Positions 3,675-60,826 of a stretch of DNA of 64,000 bases are shown one piece after another. Under the pieces are notes generated by a model. The model worked only from the letters and a program-made list of their open reading frames with translations. It ran no database searches and was not told where the DNA came from. Each line of letters starts with the position of its first letter. Position 1 is the stretch's first letter. The DNA comes from Cyanidioschyzon merolae (taxonomy: Eukaryota): NCBI GenBank assembly GCA_000091205.1, contig AP006498.2; one strand, given 5' to 3'. A program made the translations under genes and the position numbers.

Positions 3675-4308
3675 CTGAAAAGACGCGTTTCCACGGATCA
3701 GGGGATCCCAGATTGCCGGATGGACGGGTATTGGCATTCGGGAATGCGTCCAGGATGCTGCAGCCTATCTCCAAGTTCCATTGCTTGTACTTCCTCTCGG
3801 AAATACTGGTTGTTCTGTGGGTTCTATCGTGAACAGAGTGCCTGCGTCGCTGCTCCCGCCGTAGCGTCTATATCGCTGGAGTGGATGCAGCACGGAGATA
3901 GAGCTGTGCTTTGTCGTACCACTGAGGGTATCTGTTTGAGGAACGCTTCACCTGAAACGGTGTCGGGATACATAGTGAGTTTGGGAGCCAGAAATCTGTC
4001 CAGACAAGCCTAGTGCCTGCGACAGCTCGAATTGATATTCTGGGCGTCCACTGCGACCCGGGCGACGCCCAGATGCAGCGGAACTGCCCCGAGTCTCAGA
4101 GTCAACTGCGTTGCGTACGAGTTGCTCAGATCTCGCTAGAGCACCGGGCACGGAGGAGAGCATGGAGCACGAGCCTGGCAGACTCGCGCGGCTTGCAGGA
4201 TCTGCTACCTATACGGTAAACTGTCGACAATATGGAAACATTTTCCCGCTTTTAACGTTTATCTCAGAGGACGAAAGAAATCGTTGTATCGTTGCTAGTT
4301 GGTGAATC
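3675..4308. repeat. Left terminal inverted repeat of c1, about 634 bp; contains one 105-bp subterminal repeat unit and the GGATCCCAGATTG terminal motif
   Basis: The terminus begins GAAAAGACGCGTTTCCACGGATCAGGGGATCCCAGATTG. The same motif is present at the c2 left end (about 28270) and at the solo fragment near 38650. Confidence 0.75.
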
Positions 4309-4487
4309 GTTTTTGCTCTTTGTTTGCATAGCGCGGTCGATACGCGCACCTCCATATCTGGTAGTTACGAGATGCGACGCGCATCTCGCCGTTGAAGGGA
4401 AACGCTATCAGGATAATTAGCAAGGTGTTCGACCCTACAAGTTGTACTTGCGTTAAAGCCATCGCAAAGTGTATTCCCTAAATTCAG

Positions 4488-6340
4488 TTGTGTTCCACTC
4501 TCAAAATAGTATATTCATATGCGTTTTCGCAGCTTACAACAGAAACCTTCGAAGTGCCTTTTATTTCAAAAATAAAAAAGTTATGGAACTGGAATTTGAG
4601 GATCCCGGAGGGCCGGTGTCGCCGACTGCCGAAGAAAAATGAGAAGCAGAGCCGAGCAAACAGGAACTGGAAAAGACGAACAAGCAGAACGGGGAGGCCC
4701 GACGTCCGGAGTTGTACGAAAGACGACAGTACCACGAGATTGCGGAGTAAGCCGGATTTCCTAAACATATCATGGACCGTACAAGGAAAAGTTGCAAGAT
4801 GCCATCAGAACCCGTGTCGAGTCCTTCTCTAAGAGTGTTCGTAACGCTTCTTTAGTGCTGATGCATATGGCGAGGGAGATGTATTACGACGTTACAAACG
4901 TCAAAACAGTCGAGGTTCCGCAGGAATTTTTAGACAATACCTTCATTCATCACCTGAAGGTTGGCGCAGGGGAAGCATCGTGGGGAAATGCGCGAGTACA
5001 TGCCCTCCAGGAAAGTTACACTGAATACCGCTTCAAGGTTACTCAATACAGGGGTGACTCGCGTATCTACGAGTACGGGGCGATGAAGTACCCCACGAAC
5101 CCGAAGAACCATATGTTCATGGACCTCGAACGCTTCATGATACGCTCCGTCTTCGCACTCTGCCCGGGTCTCTTGCGCAAAGCGATATGGAACATTATCA
5201 ATAGCATCACGGACGATCGCCAGCATGAACAAGAGATGAAATTCGGTAACAAGAAGAAATCACACAGTAGAAAGAATGAAGACTCTGTGATCCGTGCGGC
5301 TCTACAGGAGCACTGTGCGGTACTGGGGCTGCCGAATCCAGCAGAAAAGGTATCAGAGTTAAAGAGAGTTAAAGAAAGATTTTATATCTTCTTCCTGCTG
5401 TATTTCGTGTTTCCGAACCGAGAGCTCGAACTCAAGGCGGATATGGAGCAAGGTGTGGAAGAGCATGACGAGTCGTAGAAACGGAAGGCTGCGCTTCTTG
5501 GCAAGCGCTTCAATGTCATTCCATTATGCGACGTCAAATCACATTTTGTGATCATCGACTGCAGAGTCCTTTACAGCATCATGAAGGAGATCCGTCTGGA
5601 GTTCAATCTAAGCAACAGGGGGTTTACGGGTGAAAATTGGGAGACGTGCTGCAAGAAGATCCTCGATTTCAAACGCCTCAAAACGAGCAAGAATAAGGTA
5701 CTCACAGGCATCATCGAAAGCGATGGAGTAGCGAAGTGTGTACACTGTCGGCGGTTGAAGGTTGATCGTACTGGTCCGTCTTCCTTGTCGCCCACGGCGG
5801 AGCATGAACATGAGAAACTGGAGGATCTTGCGACGCAGGGGGTGCATGAGAGCGACTTTGTCGTTGGCGCGGACCCTAAGAATACGAATCTCGTAACCGT
5901 CGCAGCACCCAAGCGTGCGGAGGATGTTAACGACGGCAACTTACGTCATAACGACGTGCGTCTTTTAAAGTTCTCGAAAGCGAGATATTACCTAGAATCG
6001 GGAAAAATGAATGCAAGGAAAATAATTGAGACATGGAATGCAGGAGTGAAAGAGTACCTGGAAGCTGTGATCCAGGTGACGAGCCGCGGTGCGGAGTTTC
6101 AAGCTTTTCGGGAATTCATGAAACCTCAAACTGCTCATCAACAGGAGCGGTGGAAAGCGTATATCAAGCTCTGGTGGGCACATCAGCGAATGAACCTGGA
6201 CGGAGGCAAGCAGCTTGCATTCACTAACTACATCAATCAGTTAAGCACCCTCTAGGAAGACAAGGGTCAAATGCTCGTAAGAGCGTACGGAGCAGGGCGC
6301 TGGATAACCAAAACGGGAGCATACCTGCTCCGTTGACGCA
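4488..6340 (+). pseudogene. TnpB/Fanzor-like RuvC nuclease pseudogene (c1); one frame is continuous from 4792 to 6337 except for two in-frame TAG codons at 5476-5478 and 6253-6255, and upstream ORF 4488-4832 is in another frame
   Basis: The conceptual translation contains RuvC-I FVVGADPKNTNLVTVAAP (Asp codon at 5872-5874). It also contains the downstream block LVRAYGAGRW at about 6277-6303, which aligns to the RuvC-II region of c2 and c3. The sequence then decays: frameshifts garble the Zn-ribbon and RuvC-III region (NRDFNSVVN) around 6340-6640. Confidence 0.6.
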
Positions 6341-6704
6341 GGGAGTACAAGGAGTGAGCATACCGTTCTGTCACAATACCGATAGATAAGTTCCGAACGT
6401 CCTATATACACCATGAACTGGGGGTGTACACGTCATTTGGTCGAGATGCAAAAGTGCCACCGGAGCGCTGGGGATATAGACAAGTACGGAGCGCTGACGG
6501 AAGAGCAAAGGGAAGGGACACGGAGGGCACAAATTTGAGGTCTACTTGCACTGGTGTATATAACCGGCTGCGGCAAGAAACGGATGGATTTTGTGAATCG
6601 TGACTTTAATTCAGTCGTCAATAAAGAGAGCTGTGCGTCGATGGATACAAGACCCGCGGAGCTGGCGCGACCCAACTTTTTGGGGCAACCGCTCAGGGTT
6701 AAAT

Positions 6705-6773
6705 TATATGAGAGAAACTGAAGCCAGGAACAGGCGGCCGGTCGAGAAAGGCTGTTAGACGTCTGCACGTCGG
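6705..6773 (+). ncRNA. Conserved 3' non-coding block of the TnpB/Fanzor-like element (c1 copy); an omega-RNA scaffold role is a speculation by analogy only
   Basis: The block is conserved across all three copies (c1 6705-6773, c2 31578-31653, c3 60764-60826), with an approximate consensus GAGAAACTGA..GGTCGARAAA...GCGTCTGCRCG. Flanking sequence is diverged and the ORFs here are degenerate. This is inference only. Confidence 0.3.
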
Positions 6774-6892
6774 TTTATACACACGCACGGTATCGGCGTG
6801 ATGGACGGAACGGCACGTCTAACAACGGGAGAGCGAAAGCAAGTGATGTGCAGCTATAGCGATGATCCACATGGTTGAAAAGGAACAGAGAC

Positions 6893-7527
6893 GCACGATC
6901 CACTAGCAACGATACAACGATTTCTTTCGTCCTCTAAGATAAACGTTAAAAGCGGGAAAATGTTTCCATATTGTCGACAGTTTACCGTATAGGTGGCAGA
7001 TCTTGCAAGCCGCGCGAGTCTGCCAGGCTCGTGCTCCATGCTCTCCTCCGTGCCCGGTGCTCTAGCGAGATCTGAGCAACTCGTACGCAACGCAGTTGAC
7101 TCTGAGACTCGGGGCAGTTCCGCTGCATCTGGGCGTCGCCCGGGTCGCAGTGGACGCCCAGAATATCAATTCGAGCTGTCGCAGGCACTAGGCTTGTCTG
7201 TACAGCTTTCTGGCTCCCAAACTCACTATGTATCCCGACACCGTTTCAGGTGAAGCGTTCCTCGAACAGACACCCTCAGTGGTACGACAAAGCACAGCTC
7301 TATCTCCGTGCTGCATCCACTCCAGCGATATAGACGCTACGGCGGGAGCAGCGACGCAGGCACTCTGCTCACGATAGAACCCACAGAACAACCAGTATTT
7401 CCGAGAGAAAGTACAAGCAATGGAACTTGGAGATAGGCTGCAGCATCCTGGACGCATTCCCGAATGCCAATACCCGTCCATCCGGCAATCTGGGATCCCC
7501 TGATCCATGGAAACGCGTTTCGGAAAA
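6893..7527. repeat. Right terminal inverted repeat of c1 (reverse complement of 3675-4308)
   Basis: Direct sequence comparison. It ends in the reverse complement of the left terminus (...CAATCTGGGATCCCCTGATCCATGGAAACGCGTTTCGGAAAAGCG), followed by a (GC)8 run at 7549-7566. Confidence 0.75.
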
Positions 7528-7656
7528 GCGAAAATCTATTTGATAGGATTTGCGCGCGCGCGCGCGCATCATATCGCGCGCCATCATTTAACGATGCTCC
7601 GCTCTGAGCGCCTTGCTGCACACGAGCTGTCGTTCCGCACCAAATGCTCTATACCC

Positions 7657-8589
7657 ATGGATAACTGGAGCAGCGATTATGAGTCGGATACAACAGTGGG
7701 CCTACAAAACATAGCCTTCCGAGTACTGAGTGTTCTGGGTATTGGGCTGTGGTTGCACTGCAAGGGACGTCGTCGGCGACGGCTCAGACGTGCTGCAAGC
7801 AACTCGCAAGGCCGCGAACAGGTAGCCGTAAGCTCCCACGACGCTCAATCATTTCCAAAATACGTTTCTGGGCAACAGATGGTTTCGAAAAGTTCCAGTG
7901 TCAAGCGTCAGGAGGGCACGCAGGGCTGCGACAAAGACGATAGCAGAATCGAAGGGGCGACGTCGCCTTGGTCACATGACGCGTGGCAACGGCTGCAGCT
8001 TGCCTGTCAGCGCGCCCAACAGCAGTGCATCTCGCTCGAGGACGAGCTGAAACGCGTTCTTCGCGAGCGAGAGGAACTCCAAGAGGCCCTCTCCATGGCA
8101 CGCGGCGCTCTGCAGCCCTGTGAGCAGAGCACGGGCTGCGCTGCACATGCAGCGCCTCTGCTTGCATCGTTACCGCCGCCGCGCAAGGCAGTGGACCAAA
8201 AGCCCAGCAAACCAGAGGCTCAACGAATGGCGGGTGCTACTGTAAACCTCGACGACGCTACGCAGCCGTGGCTAGAGCATACGACTCCGGTGCCGTCGGA
8301 CCAGTCGAGTCCGTTCCAACAGGACGAGGCGGCGTCCGGAGCCCATTCGCCTGCTGCTCGTTCTGGACCTGTGCTTCCGGACACGCTTGGTGGACTCAGG
8401 CTCGACCCTGTCGAAGTCGCTGCCGCCATGGCGCTCCGCCAGCGTGGATTTGGTGGAGGCCTGCTCAACGAGGCCTCCATCGATGACGTTCGACGACGAC
8501 TGGGTTTTGGTGGTAGTGCTCACTCGTGCAAAAACGCTGCACAAGCACCGACGCATGCTATGGACGCCTTCACGTACTATGGAGATTAA
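7657..8589 (+). CDS. hypothetical protein, Gln/Ala-rich with a predicted coiled coil (LEDELKRVLREREELQEAL)
   Basis: ORF 7507-8589 begins inside the c1 right TIR. The first ATG outside the TIR is at 7657. No recognisable domain is present, and GC-rich antisense ORFs overlap it. Confidence 0.3.
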   Translation: MDNWSSDYESDTTVGLQNIAFRVLSVLGIGLWLHCKGRRRRRLRRAASNSQGREQVAVSSHDAQSFPKYVSGQQMVSKSSSVKRQEGTQGCDKDDSRIEGATSPWSHDAWQRLQLACQRAQQQCISLEDELKRVLREREELQEALSMARGALQPCEQSTGCAAHAAPLLASLPPPRKAVDQKPSKPEAQRMAGATVNLDDATQPWLEHTTPVPSDQSSPFQQDEAASGAHSPAARSGPVLPDTLGGLRLDPVEVAAAMALRQRGFGGGLLNEASIDDVRRRLGFGGSAHSCKNAAQAPTHAMDAFTYYGD

Positions 8590-23095: not shown

Positions 23096-26065
23096 ATGGA
23101 GTCAGAGCTTCCTTGTATAGTGGTTGGTGGCGGTGTTGCTGGTCTTGGAGCGGCTTGGGCGCTTCACGATGCTGGACACCGCGTGTGCGTGCTGGAGGCG
23201 GATCCGACGCACCTCGGAGGGCACGCCTACACCATGGAAGTGCCTGTCTCGGGCTCCAGCCAAATACCTATAGATGTTGGCTTCATTGTGTATAACACTG
23301 AAGCGTACCCGAACTTGGTCGCCTGGTTCGACGCGCTGGGCGTAGAGACGGAGCCTTCGGACATGTCGTTCTCCGTGTCAGTACCTCGCGGAGCAACCGG
23401 CGGCGCTCGTCTGGAGTGGTCGAGTGATAGTCTCTGGACTTTATTCGGCGATAGGCGCAACGTGTTATGTCTGCAGTTTTACGGCATGTTGCGGGATCTG
23501 CTGCGATTCAATAAGGAGGCTATTGCGCTTCTGGAGACACTACCGCTAGAGCTCACGCTCGAACAGTTCCTGGCACAGGGACGTTATTCTGACGCATTCA
23601 GGGACTGGTACCTGACGCCAATGGTTGCTGCCGTATGGTCGAGCTCCCCCAGTGAAGTGCTGCATTTTCCTGCGCGATCCATCCTGGCATTCTTCCGGAA
23701 CCATGGATTCCTCCGGATCTTTGGGCGTCCACAATGGCGCACCGTTCGCGGCCGCAGTCAGGCCTACACCAGCCGAGTGATGCAGGCCTTAACCAGTCCA
23801 TCACAGGCCAATGGTGTGGTATCTGAAGTTCGACTGGGCGCGCGCGTGACCCGCGTGCTTGAACGAAAACAGGATAAGGCTGTCGTCGTCGTCGAGCTAG
23901 AGGATGGTCAAGTTGTGCGCGGCTCTAGAGTAATCTTCGCCACGCACGCTGACGAAACATTGCGACTGCTCGCAGAATGGGCGACACCGGAGGAACGCGC
24001 CTTTCTATCCGCCTTCGAATACGTCGAAAACGAGATTGTCATCCACCGCGACGCGCGCTTCATGCCCCAACGACGTAGTCTGTGGAGCTCGTGGAACTTT
24101 GTCCCACAGGAGGACGGCCGCGCACAAGTGGAGGCAGCGTCAACATGCAAGGTCCAGGTCACGTACTTGCTCAATCGTTTACAGAATCTGCCGAAAGACG
24201 TGCCGCCTCTGTTCGAGACACTCAACCCAGCATTTCCGCCCGAAGAGGAGCTGGTACTCGCTCGTCTGCGTCTTGCGCATCCGATGCTGACGCGGGAAGC
24301 GGTTCTTGCCCAGACTCAGTATCGCGAATCGCTTCTGCGAGACGGTTGCAAACGAGATATTTATTTCGCAGGGGCGTACTGCGGCTACGGCTTCCACGAG
24401 GACGCCCTGACATCCGGCCTGGAAGTGGCACAGTGCATCACAGAGCTGCCGATGCGATCGCTGCTAAAGCAAACCGCGTCGCCAGCTGACAACAAGCACC
24501 GGCGAGCGTTGAACAATCACCAGGGTGCATTACCCCCGGCACGTGTATCTCTCTCCGGCACCGTTGGTCGAGCAGTTCACGCAAACGTGCTCAGCTATCT
24601 CCAACGCTCAATACGTTACGGTTCACTCATTGTGGTCCTGCCTGACGGTACAGAGCATGTTTGTGGCACGCTCAAAGTTAGCGCATCGGATAACCCGCAC
24701 CTTCACCGTTTACTGGTTACATACGGGCTGAACGAGTCGCCCGTGCGCGTGCATATCCGACGATACGACTTTTTTTGGCGCGTTGTCTCCGGTGCCGATA
24801 TCGGGTTCGCCGAGGCCTTCATCGCCGGCGACTGTGATGTCGGCGGCTGGACGTCGCGACACGGCGCTGTGTACACCTGCGCTGGCACCGAGCTAGTGCG
24901 TCTGTTCAAGTTGTTTATCCTGAATCGGGACGAGGGAGCGCTTTCTCCCGCCAAACTCGGTCTCGCAGCGCGCCTAGGCATGTGGTATAACGCAGCCCTG
25001 CACCTTGTATGGCGACGGAATACCCTCCGAGGCAGTCAGAAGAACATTGAATCGCATTATGATTTAAGCAATGACTTGTTTGCTACATTTCTAGGCGATC
25101 TCTGGGTATACTCTTGCGCGCTGTGGGCGCGTCCCGATATGGATTTGGACGAAGCCCAGCGAGCCAAACTGCAGCGCATCATCGAGAAACTCCGCCTCGA
25201 TACCGCGGAGTCTGTGCTGGAGATTGGTTGCGGCTGGGGTGCGCTCGCGATAGAGATTGCCCGCCAGTATCCCAGGGTGCGTGTGTTGGGCATTACGCTC
25301 TCCAGAGAACAGCTGCGGCACGCGCAGGCGTGGGCGGCTCGCGTTGGTGTCGCTGATCGTGTCACTTTCCGTCTGGAGGATTATCGAACGCTGACCCGAA
25401 TGCCAAAAGAGGAAGTGGCGCGTGGCGACGCCGCACAAGCTGGGCGCCCGGTGGATTCGCGTAATGGCCTGATGAAGACGGCAGCCGTCGGGGGCCACGG
25501 ACGCCACGACCTCACCTTCGACCGGATAGTCAGCATCGAGATGCTTGAAGCGGTAGGGCATGAATTCCTCGGGGACTTTTTCGCCGCATGTGATCGCCTC
25601 TTGTCACCGAGTGGACTTGTTGTGGTGCAAGTCATTACAACGCCGGAAGTGCGTTACGAAAGCTACCGCAAGTCATCGGACTTTATCAACAAGCATATCT
25701 TCCCCGGCAGCTGTTGCCCTTCGTTCCATGCGCTGGTTCATGCCTGTGCAGTGGCTGCACCAGCGCTCAGCGTAGTCGATGTCGAGAGCATTGGTGTTCA
25801 CTACGCACCAACGCTGGCGTCTTGGCAGCAGCGTTTCATGGAAAACCTTGGTCGAGTTCGCCAGCTAGGATTCTCTGAGGCATTTATACGCAAGTTTCTC
25901 TACTATTTGAGTTACTGCGAGGCGGGCTTTGCGACTCGGACGTTAGATGATCTGCAAATCGTCTTTTCGCGCCCTGGAAACGTACTGAGCCTGGGGGGCG
26001 AGCCCCGAGTCTCCACCGTAGCCAGGTACCGAGAGCGCGGCGCGCTCGACAGCTCAACGAGCTAG
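23096..26065 (+). CDS. plant-type cyclopropane-fatty-acid synthase fusion protein: N-terminal FAD amine-oxidase domain plus C-terminal SAM-dependent CFA-synthase methyltransferase domain
   Basis: The ORF starts with GTG at 22940, and the first ATG is at 23096, placing the Rossmann motif IVVGGGVAGLGAAWALHDAGHRVCVLEA...GGH at the N-terminus. CFAS motifs are present: ESHYDLSNDLFATFLGDLWVYSCALW and LEIGCGWGALAIEIARQYPRVRVLGITLSREQ. The stop codon is TAG. Confidence 0.8.
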   Translation: MESELPCIVVGGGVAGLGAAWALHDAGHRVCVLEADPTHLGGHAYTMEVPVSGSSQIPIDVGFIVYNTEAYPNLVAWFDALGVETEPSDMSFSVSVPRGATGGARLEWSSDSLWTLFGDRRNVLCLQFYGMLRDLLRFNKEAIALLETLPLELTLEQFLAQGRYSDAFRDWYLTPMVAAVWSSSPSEVLHFPARSILAFFRNHGFLRIFGRPQWRTVRGRSQAYTSRVMQALTSPSQANGVVSEVRLGARVTRVLERKQDKAVVVVELEDGQVVRGSRVIFATHADETLRLLAEWATPEERAFLSAFEYVENEIVIHRDARFMPQRRSLWSSWNFVPQEDGRAQVEAASTCKVQVTYLLNRLQNLPKDVPPLFETLNPAFPPEEELVLARLRLAHPMLTREAVLAQTQYRESLLRDGCKRDIYFAGAYCGYGFHEDALTSGLEVAQCITELPMRSLLKQTASPADNKHRRALNNHQGALPPARVSLSGTVGRAVHANVLSYLQRSIRYGSLIVVLPDGTEHVCGTLKVSASDNPHLHRLLVTYGLNESPVRVHIRRYDFFWRVVSGADIGFAEAFIAGDCDVGGWTSRHGAVYTCAGTELVRLFKLFILNRDEGALSPAKLGLAARLGMWYNAALHLVWRRNTLRGSQKNIESHYDLSNDLFATFLGDLWVYSCALWARPDMDLDEAQRAKLQRIIEKLRLDTAESVLEIGCGWGALAIEIARQYPRVRVLGITLSREQLRHAQAWAARVGVADRVTFRLEDYRTLTRMPKEEVARGDAAQAGRPVDSRNGLMKTAAVGGHGRHDLTFDRIVSIEMLEAVGHEFLGDFFAACDRLLSPSGLVVVQVITTPEVRYESYRKSSDFINKHIFPGSCCPSFHALVHACAVAAPALSVVDVESIGVHYAPTLASWQQRFMENLGRVRQLGFSEAFIRKFLYYLSYCEAGFATRTLDDLQIVFSRPGNVLSLGGEPRVSTVARYRERGALDSSTS

Positions 26066-28194: not shown

Positions 28195-28334
28195 CCGCGC
28201 CATCCGCAGGGCAGCGTACGGAGCGGCAGGCACTGGTGCGATCGCTGTCCAATGATGGGCAGTTTCTCGAAGACGAAACGTTCACGTGGACCATGGATCC
28301 CAGATTGTGGGGTAGATATTCGCGCTGGGGAAAG

Positions 28335-28660
28335 CATCCACGAATCTGTACTCTGCCTTCAAGTTCGGTTCCTTACTCTTGCTCTAGGATATTCTGGTGG
28401 TTTTGTACGTAATATCGAGCGTCGAGTGCCTGCTCTGAGTATCCACGAAACTGTACTCTGCCTTCAAGTTCGGTTACTTACTCTTGCTCTAGGATATTCT
28501 GGTGGTTTTGTACGTAATATCGAGCGTCGAGTGCCTGCTCTGAGCATCCACGAATCTGTACTCTGCCTTCAAGTTCGATTACTTACTCTTGCTCTAGGAT
28601 ATTCTGGTGGTTTCGTACGTAATATCGAGCGTCGAGTGCCTGCTCTGAGCATCCGCCGGA
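28335..28660. repeat. 105-bp tandem repeat array, about 3.1 units, forming the subterminal region of transposon copy c2
   Basis: The unit catccacgaatctgtactctgccttcaagttcggtt(c/a)cttactcttgctctaggatattctggtggttt(t/c)gtacgtaatatcgagcgtcgagtgcctgctctgag starts at 28335, 28440 and 28545. One diverged unit lies in each c1 TIR, one at 38700-38800, and a partial unit at 57790-57840. Confidence 0.85.
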
Positions 28661-29244
28661 GCGGTTATATATCGCTGGTGCAGATGCATCATAGAGACGG
28701 AAATGCTCTGCCGTACCACTGGGGGTGTCGGCTCGAGGTATCTTTAAATCAGCACGGAATCGGAGTACGTAATCATTCGGGGAGTCAGCAAGCTGCGTAG
28801 ACATACCTACTGCCTGAGGCAGCACGGCGCGGTATACGAAGATACTACGGCAAGCAGGGCGACGCCGAGACGCAGCATACCCGCTCCTGGTCCCAGAATG
28901 AACTGCGTTGTGGACGAGTTGCTCAGCTCTTGCTCCAGCGCTAGGCATTGGGCGGGCCTGACGTACGAGCTTGAGAGACATGTCCGGCTCGCGGTGCCTA
29001 CCGCCGAAAAGGTAAACTTTCGAAACTATGCGAACCTTCTCCCCCTTTTTCAAAGTTTATCGTGGAGGGCGAGACAAATCGGTATCTCGTTGCTAGTCTG
29101 TGGATAGTTTCTATACTATTTTCTAGATAGCGCTGTCGATACGCGCACCTCCATATCTGGCAGGCATGATGTACGATGCTCATGTCGCTGTTGGAAGGAA
29201 ACGCGATCTTGATATTTCGCTTGTTGCTCTAACGGACAAGCTGT

Positions 29245-31586
29245 ATGTGCGCTGATGTCGTAGCAAAGTCTAGCTTTTCAGTTCCATTGTGTTTCGACCC
29301 CCAAGTCTGTGTACTCAAATGCTTTTTCGCGGTTTACAGCAGAATTGTTCGAACAGCGTTCTTTTTCAAAAACATAAAAAAGGAAAGTTCTGGAAATCGA
29401 AGTGGAGGATCCTGGAGACGCAGTATCGCCGGCTGCCAGAAAAAACAAAAAACAGTGCCGAGCAAAGACGAACAAGATAAGACCATGAAGCAAAAAGGGG
29501 TGGGGTGGTCCGACGTCAGGATCTGCGCGAACGACGACAGAACGACGAGACGTTCGTGAAAGCGTGTCTTCTTGGCCATACCAAGGATCCGTACAAGCAA
29601 AAGTTGCAAGAGGCCACAAGAAACCGTGTCGAGTCGCAATCGATGAGTGTTATATAGGCGTCGTCAGGAGAAATGCATTTAGTGAAGGACATAAATCGCG
29701 ATGTGACGGATGTCAAAACAGTCTAGGCTCCGGAGGATTTTTCAGCGAAAGCTTTATTCATCATCTGATGGTTTGCACAGGGAAACGTCGAGGAGAAATG
29801 AGCATGTGCACGCTCTCCACGAAAATTACGCCAAATGCCGCTTGAAGGGTGCTCGATACAAGGCTGACTCGCGTATTTACGAACACGGGACGATGAAGCA
29901 CCTCACGAACCTGGAGAATCGCGTGATCGTGAAACCCGAACGCTCCATGATACGCCCCATCTTTGCGCTGTACCCGGGCCCGTCTCGCAAAGGGATACGG
30001 GCCATCGTCGGTGGCATCACGATCGATAGTAGGCATGCGTGGGAGATCGAGTTTGTCGAAAAGAAGACATCACGCAGAAGAAAGAATGAAGGTTCTGTAA
30101 TCCGTGCGGCTACTCGAGAGCATCGTGCGGTCTTGGGGCTAGTCGACCCAGCAGAAAAGGTATCAGGATCGAAAGAAGATGAAGAAAGATGGGATCACCT
30201 CATGCTGCGCTATTTCGTGTTTTTCGGACCGAGAACTCGAACGCAAGGCCGAAAATGAGCAGGGTGTGGATGCAAATGAAGCGTCGGAGACGCGGAAGGC
30301 TGAGCTTCTGGAGAAGCGCTTCAACGTCGTTCTGTTATGCGAGATCAAGTCACATTTTGTGACAGTCGACTCCAGAGCCCTTGACGGCATCATGCAGGAG
30401 ATCAGTTCGGGGTTAGGTGTCAGCACGAACGAGGTTACGGGCGAAAACCGGGAAACTCATTGAAGGAGTATCATCGATTTCAAACTTCTCAAAACGAGCA
30501 AGAAAAAGGAATTTACGGGGATGTTCGAAAGCGATGGGGTATCCATATGTCGACACTATCGGCGCTTGAAGGCAGACCGTCCAGTTCGGCCCTCGGCTTC
30601 GTCCTCGGCGAACCATGAAGAAAACAAGGAGGCGGATCCTGCGACGCAGGAGGTGGAGGAGAACGACTTTATGGTTGGCGCGGCGAAGCATAAAGATGGG
30701 ATGGAGGCGGGTCCTTCGCCGCAGGACATAGAGGATACCGACTTGTCGCTGGCGCAGACCCCGGAAACACAAAGATCATAACTATCGCTGTGTCCATGCG
30801 TGCGGAAGATGGTAACGAGGGTAACTTACGTCGGAGAGACATGCGTCTGTGGAGGTTCTCGAGAGCAAGAGACTAAAGAGAATCCGGTATAATGAATGCG
30901 AGGAAGAACATCGAGATGTGGAATGCAGGAATGAAAGAGCACCTGGAAACTATGAGCCAGGTGACGAGCCGCGGAGCGGACTTGAAATCTTTTCTGAAAT
31001 CCATGGAGGTTCGCGTTGCTCATTGGGAGGCGCTGTGAAAAGAATATACAAAACCCCGGTGGGCTCGTCTGCGTATGAATCTGTACAGTGGAAGCAGCGG
31101 GCATTCGCGAATTTTTTCAATGAGTTGAGCGCCTTGAAGGAGGATGAAAGTCAGAGGCTCGTAGTAGCATACGGAGCAGGACGATGGAAGACCCAACAAG
31201 GGACTACGCCAGCTCCAACGACGAGAATGTATAACGGGTGTGCAAGGCGTTTCGCTACGATACCTGTAGATGGATTCCGAACGTCCTCTACACACCATGA
31301 ACTGGGCTGTACACTTCAGAGGGCAGAGGTGGAAAAGTGCCAGCGGAGCCCTGAGGCTATAAAAAAGTACGGACCGCTGACGGAAGAGCAAATGGAAACG
31401 AGGGCGAAACTTCGAGGATTGCTTGCACTAGTGCGTACAAGCGGCGACAAGAAATGTATGGAGTTTGTTAACCGAGACTTTCACGCCGCTATCAATATAA
31501 GGAGATGCGCGGTGATCGAAAGAAGACCCCCCAGAGTTGACAAGAGAGAATTTTGTGGGGGAGCCTCTCAAAGTGGAATTATATGA
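29245..31586 (+). pseudogene. TnpB/Fanzor-like RuvC nuclease pseudogene (c2), split over at least 4 frames by frameshifts
   Basis: ORF fragments 29710-30258, 30179-30463, 30521-30781 and 30849-31586 are collinear with the c1 frame. The RuvC-I position reads FMVGAAKHKDG, an Asp-to-Ala change (codon 30683-30685). The RuvC-II region reads VVAYGAGRWKTQ. A TS/Zn-ribbon remnant is FRTSSTHHELGC..EKC..KKC. RuvC-III reads NRDFHAAINIRRC (Asp codon 31476-31478). Confidence 0.6.
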
Positions 31587-31645
31587 GAAAAAGTTGGAAC
31601 CAGTAGTAGGTAGCCGGTCCAAAAATACTGGGAGGCGTCTGCGCG

Positions 31646-32185
31646 TCAGCCGGAGACCTCTTGTCTAGGGCGCGGGTCACTCGCCACTACTGAACACCGC
31701 TGGCGGCAACGTTCTTCTTTTGAAAGGCGTTTGCTTTGCTTTGTCAAATAGCATGGATGTGGTCGCTGTACTGTACATACCCATTTTTCTCGGATTTCGG
31801 ACGCGCTGGATGGACGCCTTTTCAAGTTCGATTTCTGTTTTATGCATCCACGATTCCTTGGGTAGCATGTCGGCACCGTTTGCACCGCGAGCGTGCCCGC
31901 AGACCTAAGCGCGCCTTTCCATTCTCTCGTGCACGCGGGCGGGTAGCTAGAGACCAGTTCAGTAATCGTGAAGTGAAAGAAAGCCTCGTCGGAGAACTTT
32001 GGTGTACCGGATGCAAACGACTCGTCTATTGATACGTCAGCGTCAAATTCGCGTTTGTCAGAAGAATAGATGCCTGCAACTGGATTGACGCACATAGAGC
32101 GAGCATACACGCAGAGGAGTTCAAAGACAGTCTCAGCTATGTCTTCCGTGACCCCTTTTGAATGAAGCTCTATGGCAGTTTCCAA
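31646..32185 (-). CDS. hypothetical ORF; a possible gene fragment continuing, with a frameshift, into 32207-32416
   Basis: A 179-aa ORF of non-repetitive composition abutting the c2 3' end. No domain was recognised. Confidence 0.2.
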   Translation of the reverse strand: METAIELHSKGVTEDIAETVFELLCVYARSMCVNPVAGIYSSDKREFDADVSIDESFASGTPKFSDEAFFHFTITELVSSYPPACTREWKGALRSAGTLAVQTVPTCYPRNRGCIKQKSNLKRRPSSASEIREKWVCTVQRPHPCYLTKQSKRLSKEERCRQRCSVVASDPRPRQEVSG

Positions 32186-38624: not shown

Positions 38625-38805
38625 CGCTGAATGATTTTTTTTGATGGACCGGACGTTGACATGCACCATGGATCCCAGATTGTGGGATGGATACCGGTGA
38701 TCGAAAGAGCGTTCATCATGCTGCACTCTATGTTCCAGTTCCATTGGTCGTACGTTTTCTCCGATATACTGGTCGTTTCGTACGTTCTACATTGCACCGT
38801 GTGCA
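38625..38805. repeat. solo terminal fragment of the c1-c3 transposon family (terminus motif plus one 105-bp-type unit)
   Basis: CGGACGTTGACATGCACCATGGATCCCAGATTGTGGGATGGATACCGG matches the c1 and c2 termini. It is followed by a diverged subterminal unit (tggtcgtttcgtacgttctac). Confidence 0.6.
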
Positions 38806-57418: not shown

Positions 57419-57989
57419 GAAGGTCGTTCGTATCCGCACTTGTTTCAAGCGTCTGCCGCCCGGAAGGCGCTAGGTCGGCACTGACGCCGCTCATGGACGG
57501 CGCCCGGCGGAGGCGCACGCGATCCGCGCATCGCTGCGCGTGCTCAGAGAGGGGCGGTTTTGCACCCGCCGCTACGCATCGCTGCGCGACGTCCAGCAGC
57601 GAGCGCCGCGATCTCGCAGGATCGCGGCGTGCGAGCGTTGGCGCCTCGTCTTCGGCGATGCGTTGGAGAAAACGTTTCAGGTGAGCGCGGATCCCAGGCA
57701 GCGGCACGGGTATTGACACGCTGGTACGCGTTCATCAAACTGCATCCGACCTCCGCGTTCGATGACTCATGAATTTTTCGGATGTACTGATCGTTTCATA
57801 TGATCTATCGTGCGCCGAGTGCCTGCCTTGAGCACTCGTCTTGGCGCCTAAACCGCTGGAGCAGATTCATCACGGATGCAGAGCGGGTTTGTCGTACCGC
57901 TGAAGGTGTCGACTCGAGGCGTGGTGCCTCTGACACCGGAATCAGGATTCATTACGATTCTAGGAGCCAGCGTGCTGCGCAGACAGACC

Positions 57990-60826
57990 TACTGCCTGCG
58001 ACAGCGCGAATCGATAGACTAGGATATAACTGGAACATAGGCTACACCCAGACGCAGCATGCTCGCTCCTGGTCATAGGATGAGCTGCGTTTCGGACGAG
58101 TTGTTCAGGTCTCGCTACAGCGGTCGCCAATCTCGAGAGCATAAAGCAGAAGCTTACCAGAGTCGGCCGGCTCGTTGGGCCTTCCTCCAAGAAGATAAAC
58201 TTTCGAAAATAGAGAAAACGTCTCCCCGTTTTACGGTTTAGCATATAGGGGAAAGCAATTGTCATCAAGTCGGTAGTTAACAGGTAGTTTCTGCTTTTTT
58301 TGTATCGCACGGTCGATGAGCGGAACTGCGTATTTAGAAGGCATGAGATACGACGCGCCTCTCGCTGCTGGAAGGAAACGCGATCTTGATACTTCGCTTG
58401 TTGCTCTGACGGACAAGCTGTATGTGCGCTGATGTCGTAGCAAAGTCTAGCTTTTCAGTTCCATTGTGTTTCGACCCCCAAGTCTGTGTACTCAAGTGCT
58501 TTTTCGCGGTTTACCGCAGAATCGTTCGAACAGCGTTCTTTTTCAAAAACATAAAAAAGGAAAGTTCTGGAAATCAAAGTGGAGGATCCTGGGGACGCAG
58601 TATCGCCGGCTGCCAGAAAAACCAAAAAACAGTGCCGAGCAAAGACGAACAAGATAAGACCATGAAGCAAAAAGGGGTGGGGTGGTCCGACGTCAGGATC
58701 TGCGCGAACGACGACACAACGACGAGATGTTCGTGAAAGCGTGTCTTCTTGGCCATATCAAGGATCCGTACAAGCAAAAGTTGCAAGAGTCCACAAGAAA
58801 CCGTGTCGAGTCGCAATCGATGAGTGTTATATAGGCGTCGTCAGGAGAAATGCATTTAGTGAAGGACATAAATCGCGATGTGACGGATATCAAAACAGTC
58901 TAGGCTCCGGAGGATTTTTCAGCGAAAGCTTTATTCGTCACCTGATGGTTTGCACAGGGAAACGTCGAGGAGAAATGAGCATGTGCACGCTCTCCACGAA
59001 AATTACGCCCAATGCCGCTTGAAGGGTGCTCGATACAAGGCTGACTCGCGTATTTACGAACACGGGACGATGAAGCACCTCACGAACCTGGAGAATCGCG
59101 TGATCGTGAAACTCGAACGCTCCATGATACGCTCCATCTTTGCGCTGTACCCGGGCCTGTCTCGCAAAGGGATACGGGCCATCGTCGGTGGCATCACGAT
59201 CGATAGTAGGCATGAGTGGGAGATCGAATTTGTCGAAAAGAAGACATCACGCAGAAGAAAGAATGAAGGTTCTGTAATCCGTGCGGCTATTCAAGAGCAT
59301 CATGCGGTCTTGGGGCTAGTCGACCCAGCAGAAAAGGTATCAGGATCGAAAGAAGATGAAGAAAGATGGGATCACCTCATGCTGCGCTATTTCGTGTTTT
59401 TCGGACCGAGAACTCGAACGCAAGGCCGAAAATGAGCAGGGTGTGGATGCAAATGAAGCGTCGGATACGCGGAAGGCTGAGCTTCTGGAGAAGCGCTTCA
59501 ACGTCGTTCTGTTATGCGAGATCAAGTCACATTTTGTGACAGTCGACTCCAGAGCCCTTGACGGCATCATGCAGGAGATCAGTTCGGGGTTAGGTGTCAG
59601 CACGAACGAGGTTACGGGCGAAAACCGGGAAACTCACTGAAGGAGTATCATCGATTCCAAACTTCTCAAAACGAGCAAGAAAAAGGAATTTACGGGGATG
59701 TTCGAAAGCGATGGGGTATCCATATGTCGACACTATCGGCGCTTGAAGGCAGACCGTCCAGTTCGGCCCTCGGCTTCGTCCTCGGCGAACCATGAAGAAA
59801 ACAAGGAGGCGGATCCTGCGACGCAGGAGGTGGAGGAGAACGACTTTATGGTTGGCGCGGCGAAGCATAAAGATGGGATGGAGGCGGGTCCTTCGCCGCA
59901 GGACATAGAGGATACCGACTTGTCGCTGGCGCAGACCCCGGAAACACAAAGATCATAACCATCGCTGTGTCCACGCGTGCGGAAGATGGTAACGAGGGTA
60001 ACTTATGTCGGAGAGACATGCGTCTGTGGAGGTTCTCGAGAGCAAGAGACTAAAGAGAATCCGGTATAATGAATGCGAGGAAGAACATCGAGATGTGGAA
60101 TGCAGGAATGAAAGAGCACCTGGAAGCTATGAGCCAGGTGACGAGCCGCGGAGCGGACTTGAAATCTTTTCTGAAATCCATGGAGGTTCGCGTTGCTCAT
60201 TGGGAGGCGCTGTGAAAAGAATATACAAAACCCCGGTGGGCTCGTCTGCGTATGAATCTATACAGTGGAAGCAGCGGGCATTCGCGAATTTTTTCAATGA
60301 GTTGAGCGCCTTGAAAGAGGATGAAAGTCAGAGGCTCGTAGTAGCATACGGAGCAGGACGATGGAAGACTCAAAAAGGGACTACGCCAGCTCCAACGACG
60401 AGAATGTATAACGGGTGTGCAAGGAGTTTCGCTACGATACCTGTAGATGGATTCCGAACGTCGTCTACACACCATGAACTGGGCTGTACACTTCAGAGGG
60501 CAGAGGTGGAAAAGTGCCAGCGGAGCCCTGAGGCTATAAAAAAGTACGGACCGCTGACGGAAGAGCAAATGGAAAGGAGGGCGAAACTTCGAGGGCTACT
60601 CGCATGGGTTAGTACAACCAACGGGGCCAAGAAACGCATGGAGTCCGTGAATCGAGCCTCTAATGCCGCCATCAATATCAGACGATGTTCGGTGCTGGAT
60701 ACAGGACCCGCGGGGCTGACGCGATCCAGTTTTGCGGGGCAATCTCTCCGGCTCGAAGTGAACAGGGAGAAACTGATGCCAATAGCAGTGGGCTGGTCGA
60801 AAACGACAGGTATGCGTCTGCGCCTA
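57990..60826 (+). mobile_element. Transposon copy c3: truncated left end, a TnpB/Fanzor-like pseudogene, and the conserved 3' block
   Basis: The left part CTACTGCCTGCGACAGCGCGAATCGATAGACTAGG matches c1 4010-4045. The internal 58195-60590 is about 98 percent identical to c2. The 3' block 60764-60826 is conserved. Confidence 0.65.
58422..60770 (+). pseudogene. TnpB/Fanzor-like RuvC nuclease pseudogene (c3) with frameshifts and stops
   Basis: The same collinear fragments as c2 are present (58950-59435, 59356-59640, 59698-59958, 60005-60943). RuvC-I reads FMVGAAKHKDG. RuvC-III reads VNRASNAAINIRRC, an Asp-to-Ala change at codon 60650-60652. The listed ORF 60005-60943 reads past the conserved block into the flank and is not a real extension. 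Confidence 0.6.

Follow-up and report, generated by a model that had tools for sequence, protein, structure and literature searches.

A dead Fanzor1 element, very probably of the CMe-1A repeat family, in Cyanidioschyzon merolae

The locus and its host

What is the broken gene at positions 4488–6790 of a 64-kb stretch of Cyanidioschyzon merolae DNA (the whole stretch analysed, here called the window), and does it belong to a transposon with terminal inverted repeats (TIRs)? An earlier note, made from the letters alone, had described a pseudogenised eukaryotic TnpB/Fanzor-like nuclease gene inside a TIR transposon. As set out below, positions 4488–6790 are very probably part of an old, dead copy (c1, 3683 to ~6775) of the Fanzor1 repeat family CMe-1A of C. 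merolae.

Six host proteins encoded in the window were looked up; four were exact matches to annotated C. merolae 10D proteins and a fifth clustered with one. Judged from these sequences, the genes flanking c1 are C. merolae nuclear genes, and the intron-poor alga suggested as host is C. merolae 10D. Two host stop codons (26063–26065 and 56889–56891) were confirmed as TAG, and the in-frame TAGs of c1 were, as proposed, ordinary nonsense mutations and not recoding.

Layout and decay of c1

By self-blastn the 64-kb window was found to hold three copies of the element (c1, c2 and c3). The parts of c1 were as follows.

3683..4299, + strand: 5′ module, the left arm (self-blastn and repeat search; weaker complementarity reaches 4321)
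4331..4582, + strand: leader on the 5′ side of the conserved core; from this point on nearly all related loci are homologous
4583..6685, + strand: Fanzor1 pseudogene (tblastn of family proteins, translations, homologue search with E=1.4e-218)
4640..4642 (TGA) and 4748..4750 (TAA), + strand: in-frame stops of the frame-2 start segment (translations, tblastn)
5476..5478 (TAG), 6253..6255 (TAG), 6334..6336 (TGA) and 6355..6357 (TGA), + strand: in-frame stops of frame 1
within 6422..6685, + strand: seventh in-frame stop, in the final frame-2 stretch
6686..6775, + strand: remnant of the non-coding 3′ tail (tail alignment, blastn against locus L001)
6776..6901, no strand: spacer between truncated tail and right arm, matching no related locus; weak complementarity to the arm at 6880–6901
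6902..7518, − strand: right arm; the 5′ module again, in inverted orientation, with 98.4% identity to the left arm

The span from 3683 to ~6775 was 3.1 kb, with a 5′ module of 617–639 bp. The left arm matched in length and position the published 635-bp segment common to CMe-1A and TE-N2_CMe, and in c2, c3 and some of the metagenome loci the ORF was preceded by the same module. In nearly all related loci the core homology started at the point corresponding to 4331 whatever 5′ module preceded it, and in c1 the leader opened there with a GC-rich palindrome, GCGCG(N7)CGCGC (4331–4347). At the other end, the c1 tail was without the last 80–90 nt of the family tail, terminal hairpin included.

The pseudogene began at ATG 4583 in frame 2, ran in frame 1 from ~4777 to 6423 and was again in frame 2 from ~6422 to 6685. 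Seven in-frame stops and two frameshifts interrupt it, which bears out the claim that it was pseudogenised. The earlier note had given a single frame from 4792 to about 6337 broken by two TAGs; the frame was indeed open from 4792 and both TAGs were present, but its end and extent had to be revised. The TGA codons at 6334–6336 and 6355–6357 were two further in-frame nonsense mutations, with homology in the same frame running on to 6423, and the gene started upstream at ATG 4583 and continued to 6685 after the frameshift near 6422. The c1 pseudogene is larger and more broken than earlier described.

Two further copies and the repeat family

The other two copies were delimited by self-blastn, tblastn and tail alignment.

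28544..31730, + strand: copy c2
28544..29097, + strand: arm of c2
~29481..31559, + strand: pseudogene of c2
30751..30771, + strand: GADPGNT of c2
31266..31286, + strand: VDGFRTS of c2
31470..31496, + strand: NRDFHAAIN of c2
31560..31730, + strand: complete 3′ tail of c2, 171 nt (end ~31730), terminating ...GAAAGGCGTT
57706..60823, + strand: copy c3, its tail truncated at ~60823
57706..58262, + strand: arm of c3
~58658..60739, + strand: pseudogene of c3
60443..60463, + strand: VDGFRTS of c3
60650..60676, + strand: NRASNAAIN of c3

The c2 pseudogene carried at least four frameshifts and five stops; c2 and c3 had the same frameshifts and stops and different flanks. Sequence c1 was ~28% diverged from its paralogues (identity to any of them ~70–72%). 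These are paralogous copies, not orthologous ones as had been written, and the motif NRDF(H/N)AAINI attributed to both c2 and c3 was present in c2 (NRDFHAAIN) and not in c3, where it reads NRASNAAIN.

CMe-1A was described in C. merolae as ~150 copies, ~80% identical to a ~3 kb consensus that has no TIRs and whose 5′ 635 bp equal TE-N2_CMe, a short repeat in its own right (Bao & Jurka 2013, Mobile DNA 4:12; PMC3627910). The family of c1 was like it in organism, in being multicopy, in length (~3 kb), in its single Fanzor1 ORF, in a 5′ ~635 bp corresponding to TE-N2_CMe, in having no TIRs and no recognisable target-site duplications (TSDs), and in the age of its copies, which were roughly 70–80% alike. 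Copy c1 itself differed from CMe-1A in an extra inverted 5′ module and the shortened tail, and otherwise in nothing essential. The best explanation is that the c1 family is CMe-1A, the identification being by matching description and not by alignment to the Repbase CMe-1A and TE-N2_CMe consensuses; the family is already known, having been published in 2013. Related stretches also numbered 344 in Cyanidiales-type metagenome contigs, which with the three window copies places the Fanzor1 gene in a multicopy mobile element of a eukaryote.

The encoded protein as a Fanzor1

The stitched c1 protein had 44 metagenome homologues, the best of them (P0001) at E=1.4e-218, a match far beyond chance, and a chance motif match was rejected on this evidence. 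A representative-sequence search gave 1367 relatives. P0001 (loci L001–L003) was the best-preserved environmental relative, with a frame open over ~750 codons and the D-E-D triad intact. Of 81 related metagenome loci, a single element had both the frame open and the three motifs present, and its native start codon was missing.

Standard models did not recognise the family. A Pfam/NCBIfam scan of the window proteins gave no family at E of 1 or better, and P0001, P0002, P0004 and P0012 gave nothing meaningful against the same models. The HMM comparison with TnpB models, suggested earlier as a check, thus yielded no direct significant match in Pfam or NCBIfam: the best TnpB-model score was that of P0001 against PF07282 (E=0.23 over 11 residues, 12 bits with a cut-off of 26.3), and ten distant relatives gave a single weak TNB match in Pfam (E=0.0023). 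Shallow profiles (A1 and A2) found nothing relevant among PDB sequences, and AlphaFold on the shallow 44-sequence alignment gave an unusable model (pLDDT 38).

A deep profile (A3) of 76 diverse relatives, P0001 and 75 others, matched the PDB sequences of PpFz1 (4.3e-23), SpuFz1 (4.7e-14) and GtFz1 (9.4e-7). The AlphaFold model of P0001 reached a pLDDT of 82.6 and a pTM of 0.80, and in a Foldseek search of the PDB it matched SpuFz1 at 1.1e-16 (target TM-score 0.72), PpFz1 at 1.5e-15 and GtFz1 at 5.3e-14. The top seven PDB matches were all Fanzor1 (E from 1.1e-16 to 5.3e-14, target TM-score up to 0.74); Cas12 and Fanzor2 appeared only at E 3e-3 or weaker. Both the sequence and the fold matches to Fanzor1 spanned nearly the full length (WED, REC and RuvC). 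Membership of the family in Fanzor1 is supported by the deep profile and by the predicted fold, so that the TnpB/Fanzor-like gene of the earlier note can be named more closely, and the structure prediction it had suggested, carried out on P0001, gave a Fanzor1 fold with WED, REC and RuvC and the three solved Fanzor1 proteins as top matches.

The case offers two points of calibration. Motif reading alone had named Fanzor correctly where the standard Pfam/NCBIfam models miss the family. A shallow alignment gave neither a profile match nor a usable AlphaFold model; the link to Fanzor1 emerges only through a deep profile of the family or by comparing folds, and alignment depth decided the outcome.

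The RuvC active site

The catalytic motifs of c1 were located as follows.

5866..5886, + strand: GADPKNT (RuvC-I), with the catalytic Asp codon GAC retained at 5872..5874
6283..6303, + strand: AYGAGRW, RuvC-II strand with Gly in place of the canonical Glu (G623, invariant in the family alignment)
6382..6402, + strand: IDKFRTS, with AAG (Lys) at 6388..6390, the alternative catalytic Glu position (E656, invariant in 76 relatives)
6596..6622, + strand: NRDFNSVVN, decayed RuvC-III, Asp codon at 6602..6604, out of frame with the main frame

The GAC at 5872–5874 had been proposed as the RuvC-I Asp and was confirmed as the Asp of FVVGADPKNTNLVTVAAP; its column (D484) was invariant in the 76 relatives and aligned with the DPG/DPN of solved Fanzor1. 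The LVRAYGAGRW block, expected ~135 aa later, was found at 134 aa. It was rightly taken as the RuvC-II strand, but the catalytic Glu is not there and sits downstream in VDEFRTS. Fanzors have Gly or Pro where the RuvC-II Glu would be and use a Glu further downstream instead (PMC10530073). Among the 76 relatives D484, G623 and E656 were invariant and D725 was 97% conserved. The family triad thus runs from the RuvC-I Asp through an alternative Glu, past the inert RuvC-II, to the Asp of the RuvC-III RD motif, and this conservation fits the rearranged Fanzor active site (PMC10530073).

All three window copies had lost the catalytic Glu of VDEFRTS (E→K in c1, E→G in c2 and c3), and c3 was additionally without the RuvC-III Asp. 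The Lys at 6388–6390 destroys the active site of c1, and the triad losses indicate that the window copies are dead members of the family.

A C4 zinc finger between [TS][TS] and RD is the Fanzor signature of Bao & Jurka 2013 (PMC3627910). In the alignment of 76 relatives it was absent across the clade: between E656 and D725 there was one conserved Cys column (position 708, 72% of sequences), and the CxxC pairs of PpFz1 and SpuFz1 aligned to non-Cys residues. Going by this alignment, the missing zinc ribbon is read as a clade-level divergence and as no ground for exclusion from Fanzor1. A whole Fanzor1 clade without the ribbon may be of specialist interest if followed in intact copies. The family also carried an insert just before RuvC-I, disordered and made of one to ~six acidic 26-aa repeats; such an acidic tandem-repeat insert adjoining RuvC-I might, in intact copies, interest specialists as well.

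Comparison with solved proteins

The family resembled the solved Fanzor1 proteins SpuFz1 (8GKH, 9CEU), PpFz1 (9CF0) and GtFz1 (9CER) in the full-length fold (WED, REC, RuvC), in a DPG-type RuvC-I, in a canonical RuvC-II position taken by Gly, the catalytic Glu being that of D-E-[FY]-[RK]-T-[ST], in a RuvC-III of N-R-D...N-[IFM], and in a non-coding 3′ tail long enough for an omega RNA of 75–150 nt. It differed in sharing only 13–15% sequence identity with them, the family being known here from sequence and a predicted model, in having no Cys pairs of the TNB zinc ribbon, and in its acidic 26-aa repeat insert ahead of RuvC-I.

With IS200/IS605 TnpB (ISDra2) and Cas12f it shared the RuvC superfamily and the motif order. 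However, no TnpB model of Pfam or NCBIfam matched, the fold match was weak (E 0.1 or worse, low TM-score), and the family has a eukaryotic host, a longer protein and a rearranged catalytic Glu. Fanzor2 (ApmFz2, 9B0L), another TnpB relative of eukaryotes or viruses whose Glu is rearranged, reached only E=1e-2 in Foldseek, across 280 columns. Elements of the Fanzor2 type are IS607-like and carry a serine recombinase; none was present in the c1-family element.

The 3′ tail

The family ended in a non-coding 3′ tail of 163–173 nt with a sharp common end, whose terminal hairpin forms the right end of the element. The tail boundary was common to 64 distinct copies, and the hairpin was predicted in nearly all of 16 folded copies and was kept in two different registers. 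The bases that follow the right end are G/T-rich. The tail is a candidate for the region that would encode an omega RNA, but a structure has no support from covariation. For the 3′ region, RNAalifold gave a consensus of −3.8 kcal/mol, near zero; covariation in a hand-built five-helix structure of the tail equalled that of shuffled controls in count; and an Rfam search of c2 found no family. Fold z-scores were modest (mean ~−1.6 sense and ~−0.95 antisense), and the sense strand folded 8–12 kcal/mol better than the antisense strand owing to G-U pairs. The hairpin-ended tail, together with 5′ modules swapped among elements, could be of specialist interest if pursued in intact copies.

Inverted arms, mechanism and mobility

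The c1 arms (3683–4299 and 6902–7518) differed at 10 positions in 617 bp. In 66 related copies, each with 1 kb or more of sequence on its 3′ side, no inverted arm was found in the first kilobase downstream, nor was a right arm found at c2 or c3. A TSD around c1 and a transposase ORF inside the element were both sought and not found. The right arm occupied the same site in 99%-identical environmental strains, where six of six contigs ended inside it. The description of the gene as lying inside a TIR transposon thus does not hold for the family, the arm being unique to c1, no TSD being present and the published family having no TIRs.

Could c1 nevertheless be a true cut-and-paste, non-autonomous transposon with 617-bp TIRs, moved by a DDE transposase and carrying Fanzor as cargo, with the right ends of c2 and c3 lost? 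The arms are long and 98.4% identical, Fanzor1 genes are known in several TIR superfamilies (PMC3627910), and c3 is truncated at its 3′ end. Against this, the 3′ end of c2 is complete, is common to 64 other copies and has no arm after it, and no inverted arm follows any of the 66 related copies within 1 kb. The c1 tail was already truncated ahead of the arm, with unrelated sequence in between, c1 has no flanking TSD, and the published consensus has no TIRs (PMC3627910). Arms 98% alike in a copy ~70–72% identical to its paralogues also point to a later event. We regard a TIR transposon as very unlikely. The right arm at 6902–7518 is, we infer, a secondary copy of the 5′ module, which may have arisen through inverted duplication or through an insertion with subsequent gene conversion; such an origin would account for 98.4% arm identity in a copy ~28% diverged from its paralogues.

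TnpB has the motif order D...E...RD too, so that we also weighed whether the gene is akin to a prokaryotic TnpB, brought in by contaminating bacteria or by a recent horizontal transfer, instead of to a eukaryotic Fanzor. The flanking genes are those of the C. merolae nucleus, bacterial TnpB models gave no match, the best sequence and fold matches were to Fanzor1 near full length with Cas12f and Fanzor2 weak, and the 64 kb contain three copies, with a further 344 in Cyanidiales-type metagenome contigs. Bacterial TnpB contamination was rejected on the nuclear flanks, the absent TnpB-model match and the Fanzor1 best matches, and a prokaryotic origin of this kind has hardly any likelihood left.

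An intact element of the c1 family consists, in order, of a variable 5′ module (in c1 the ~635-bp TE-N2_CMe-like segment), a ~250-bp leader, an intron-less gene and the 163–173-nt hairpin-ended tail. The gene encodes a Fanzor1 of ~700–780 aa with WED, REC and a split RuvC (Asp of GADPGNT, Glu of VDEFRTS, Asp of NRDFNAAINI). In IS200/IS605 TnpB and Cas12f systems the guide RNA is encoded at the 3′ end of the element. By analogy with characterised Fanzor1 and TnpB, transcription of the tail would yield an omega RNA that runs on at its 3′ end into the flanking DNA, and this end would act as the guide; the protein-RNA complex would then cut matching DNA beside a short transposon-adjacent motif, and such cutting would favour retention or spread of the element, its DNA probably being moved by an enzyme supplied in trans. 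With seven stops, two frameshifts, the Glu-to-Lys change and 80–90 nt of tail lost, c1 is capable of none of these steps.

Alternatively, the family might move by a single-strand HUH-type mechanism (IS200/IS605- or Helitron-like) that uses the hairpins at its two core boundaries, the 3′ hairpin being a DNA recognition signal and not an omega RNA. Such a layout occurs in IS200/IS605, the ancestral home of TnpB, and would suit a family without TIRs and TSDs, the GC-rich palindrome at the left core boundary and a right-end hairpin kept in two registers. However, the window copies showed neither an HUH nor a Rep gene, and among red algae no Replitron-type Rep protein was detected (PMC10288648). 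The better folding of the sense strand by 8–12 kcal/mol suits an RNA or a single top strand, and under this mechanism the hairpin could belong to an omega RNA as well. We consider the HUH-type mechanism, with the hairpin as a DNA signal in place of an omega RNA, improbable, though less so than a TIR transposon.

The dead copy described here is one of a transposon family catalogued in 2013, and the finding is of limited weight. The source organisms of the family live at high temperature and low pH, as thermoacidophilic red algae do. It is a long shot, yet conceivable, that the best-preserved members (e.g. P0001) represent a still-functional Fanzor1 clade of these algae, without the TNB zinc ribbon, with a variable insert of acidic 26-aa repeats and an omega RNA from the hairpin-ended tail, carried in a TIR-less and TSD-less element that has interchangeable 5′ modules and possibly moves as a single strand.

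Three copies of a Fanzor1-carrying family in the window

Self-comparison of the window revealed three copies of one repeat family:
c1, 3683–7518
c2, about 28544–31730
c3, about 57706–60823

c2 and c3 were 90% identical, and c1 was about 70–72% identical to either. Of six host ORFs compared as exact sequences, four were identical to annotated C. merolae 10D proteins (BAM81704, BAM81706, BAM81715 and BAM81716), confirming the host as an intron-poor alga; a fifth was a MetaClust record in a cluster containing BAM81710, and the sixth had no exact match.

Bao and Jurka (2013) described one Fanzor1 family in C. merolae, CMe-1A: about 150 copies at roughly 80% identity to a ~3-kb consensus, with no terminal inverted repeats (TIRs) and undeterminable target-site duplications; its 5′ 635 bp were 95% identical to the entire short repeat TE-N2_CMe (~70 copies), and some copies were said to be still intact (PMC3627910). 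The stretch of c1 from 3683 to ~6775, 3.1 kb with a 617–639-bp 5′ module, fits CMe-1A, a name that here rests on the published description. The c1 family is thus already in the literature of 2013 (PMC3627910).

Identification of the protein as Fanzor1

A direct HMM match to TnpB models, proposed as a test in the earlier note, was not obtained for the window proteins with Pfam and NCBIfam, and the best relative matched PF07282 alone (E=0.23). A homologue search with the stitched c1 protein gave 44 homologues, all metagenomic (best E=1.4e-218); the longest, P0001 (752 aa), contained the motifs FIVGADPGNTN, VVAYGAGRW, VDEFRTS and FVNRDFNAAINI. Profiles of close relatives matched no PDB sequences, and AlphaFold failed on their shallow alignment (pLDDT 38). 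An exhaustive profile search then recovered 1367 relatives, many of 590–700 aa, and a deeper alignment (A3), which combined P0001 with 75 of these (23–39% identity), changed the outcome: its profile matched Fanzor1 of Parasitella parasitica (E=4.3e-23), Spizellomyces punctatus (4.7e-14) and Guillardia theta (9.4e-7), and AlphaFold gave a usable model (pLDDT 82.6, pTM 0.80). The top seven Foldseek matches of this model in the PDB were all Fanzor1 (E 1.1e-16 to 5.3e-14; highest target TM-score 0.74), followed by Cas12 and Fanzor2 at E 3e-3 or weaker. Profile and fold evidence thus bear out the identification of the gene as a Fanzor, the modeled protein being the relative P0001, not c1.

Active site and clade features

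In the 76-sequence alignment, P0001 residues D484 (RuvC-I), G623 (RuvC-II) and E656 were invariant and D725 (RuvC-III) was 97% conserved. This agrees with the published Fanzor arrangement: Gly or Pro takes the place of the RuvC-II Glu, and catalysis falls to another Glu farther downstream (PMC10530073). The AYGAGRW block, earlier assigned to the RuvC-II region, is indeed the RuvC-II strand, but an inert one, the catalytic Glu being instead in VDEFRTS. At that position c1 had Lys (AAG 6388–6390) and c2 and c3 had Gly; the RuvC-III motif read as NRDF(H/N)AAINI had also lost its Asp in c3 (NRASNAAIN). Judged by these residues, c1, c2 and c3 are all catalytically dead, even leaving aside stops and frameshifts.

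From the catalytic Glu to the RD motif (P0001 656–725), the four Cys of the zinc ribbon were absent throughout the clade of 76 relatives, and a single Cys column was conserved, in 72% of sequences. Acidic 26-aa (78-bp) tandem repeats, one to about six in number (..KHEEKKEADPATQEVQDNDFVVDA..), adjoined the RuvC-I strand N-terminally, every unit re-copying the start of that strand. The region was disordered in the AlphaFold prediction:
c1, 5795–5872, acidic repeat region, one unit
c2, 30605–30757, acidic repeat region
P0001, residues 388–469 (locus L001), acidic repeat region

Near the C-terminus, a stop recurred at the codon of P0001 residue 745 (RPPE*TRENF) at no fewer than 10 loci, others having Trp, Leu or Ser. 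DNA similarity was unchanged 3′ of this codon, so the natural protein end may differ between sub-lineages.

Decay of c1 and intact relatives

Translation of c1 reproduced the features described before: frame 1 was open from 4792, broken by TAG at 5476–5478 and 6253–6255; the RuvC-I Asp was GAC 5872–5874, within FVVGADPKNTNLVTVAAP; LVRAYGAGRW, placed ~135 aa later, was 134 residues away; and both host stop codons cited were TAG. Mapping of family proteins onto c1, however, revealed a longer and more damaged gene than first described. It started at ATG 4583 in frame 2 (MELEFEDPGGP), with stops at 4640–4642 and 4748–4750, and shifted near 4777 to frame 1, which continued to 6423 rather than ending at ~6337, so that TGA 6334–6336 and TGA 6355–6357 are nonsense codons, not the gene end. 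A second shift near 6422 returned it to frame 2 up to 6685, a stretch with one more in-frame stop and NRDFNSVVN (6596–6622). As a fossil copy, c1 cannot plausibly be active.

Among 81 related metagenome loci, all three motifs occurred together in one long open frame only in the P0001 element (819 codons at L001, 778 at L003); its native N-terminus was out of frame, the first in-frame ATG being residue 31. Locus L024 had a 772-codon open frame keeping both RuvC Asp and the Glu (RuvC-III, NRDFITAIN), its first ~100 codons being out of frame.

Inverted arms of c1

c1 had been described as lying inside a TIR transposon. It does have inverted arms (3683–4299 and 6902–7518; 10 mismatches in 617 bp, 98.4% identical), but they are not a family feature. 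Window self-comparison detected no right arm in c2 or c3, c2 finishing in the full family 3′ end with no arm beyond; among related metagenome copies whose 3′ flank extended for 1 kb or more, 66 in all, none had an inverted arm within 1 kb downstream, and no target-site duplication was found in the bases flanking c1. The evidence does not support reading the family as a TIR transposon. The c1 tail was broken off at ~6775, 80–90 nt before the family end, and was separated from the right arm by ~105–125 bp matching nothing elsewhere. We infer that the right arm originated later, when the TE-N2-like module was duplicated in inverted orientation or inserted. Against the 98.4% arm identity, c1 was ~28–30% diverged from its paralogues; the arms were possibly kept uniform by gene conversion. 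The right arm was already present in close environmental strains (99% identity; contigs ending inside the arm).

c1 and c3 (~60823), of different sub-lineages, lost similarity at the same tail point, ~85–90 nt after the ORF, and the sequences beyond were unrelated to each other and to every other locus; this is either coincidence or a preferred breakpoint. The longest-ORF ATG of the neighboring host gene (7507–8589) fell in the last 12 bases of the right arm, its true start codon probably being further downstream. At the 5′ edge of the c2 arm, a 105-bp unit was tandemly repeated 3.1 times (28333–28654, 96% matches). The corresponding ~120-bp arm segment (c1 3703–3826) also occurred alone at 38670–38789 (72% identity); this part of the TE-N2-like module seems to behave as its own unit.

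Element ends and a candidate omega-RNA region

The common core of the family began at a GC-rich palindrome (c1 4331–4347). Four or more unrelated 5′ modules lay before it in different loci, each common to a subset of them (L001–L081, equivalent of c1 4250–4350). The junction palindrome read GCGCG(N7)CGCGC or GCGCTCAGTGAGCGC.

At the 3′ side, similarity ran 163–173 nt beyond the last codon and stopped sharply after ...GAAAGGCG(T/G)T in 64 distinct copies. The final 25 nt formed a hairpin in nearly all of 16 folded copies, in two registers by sub-lineage: CGTTCGA-CTT-TCGAACG, or AACGTTTTTC-TTTT-GAAAGGCGTT with G-U pairs. The sense strand of the tail folded 8–12 kcal/mol better than the antisense; fold z-scores were modest (mean ~−1.6 versus ~−0.95). 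RNAalifold gave no consensus structure for the 3′ region, covariation in a five-helix tail model was not above shuffled controls, and Rfam gave no match. Since the copies are neutrally decaying transposons, their mutual similarity does not indicate constraint. The known omega RNAs of Fanzor1 measure 75–150 nt (PMC11423790), so the tail has the right place and size and may be regarded as a candidate omega-RNA region. At 38 loci, the first 6–10 bases past the right end (columns 285–295 of the right-end alignment A5) were G/T-rich and semi-conserved (e.g. TTTGTTG, TTTGGTG, GTGGTGG and TTGATGG), which could reflect an insertion-site preference or a true end a few bases further on.

Spread of a dead copy

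c2 (29481–31559) and c3 (58658–60739) had four frameshifts and five stops in common, in unrelated flanks, indicating that one derives from a relative of the other that was already dead. The dead copy was thus spread through mobilisation in trans or some other form of copying.
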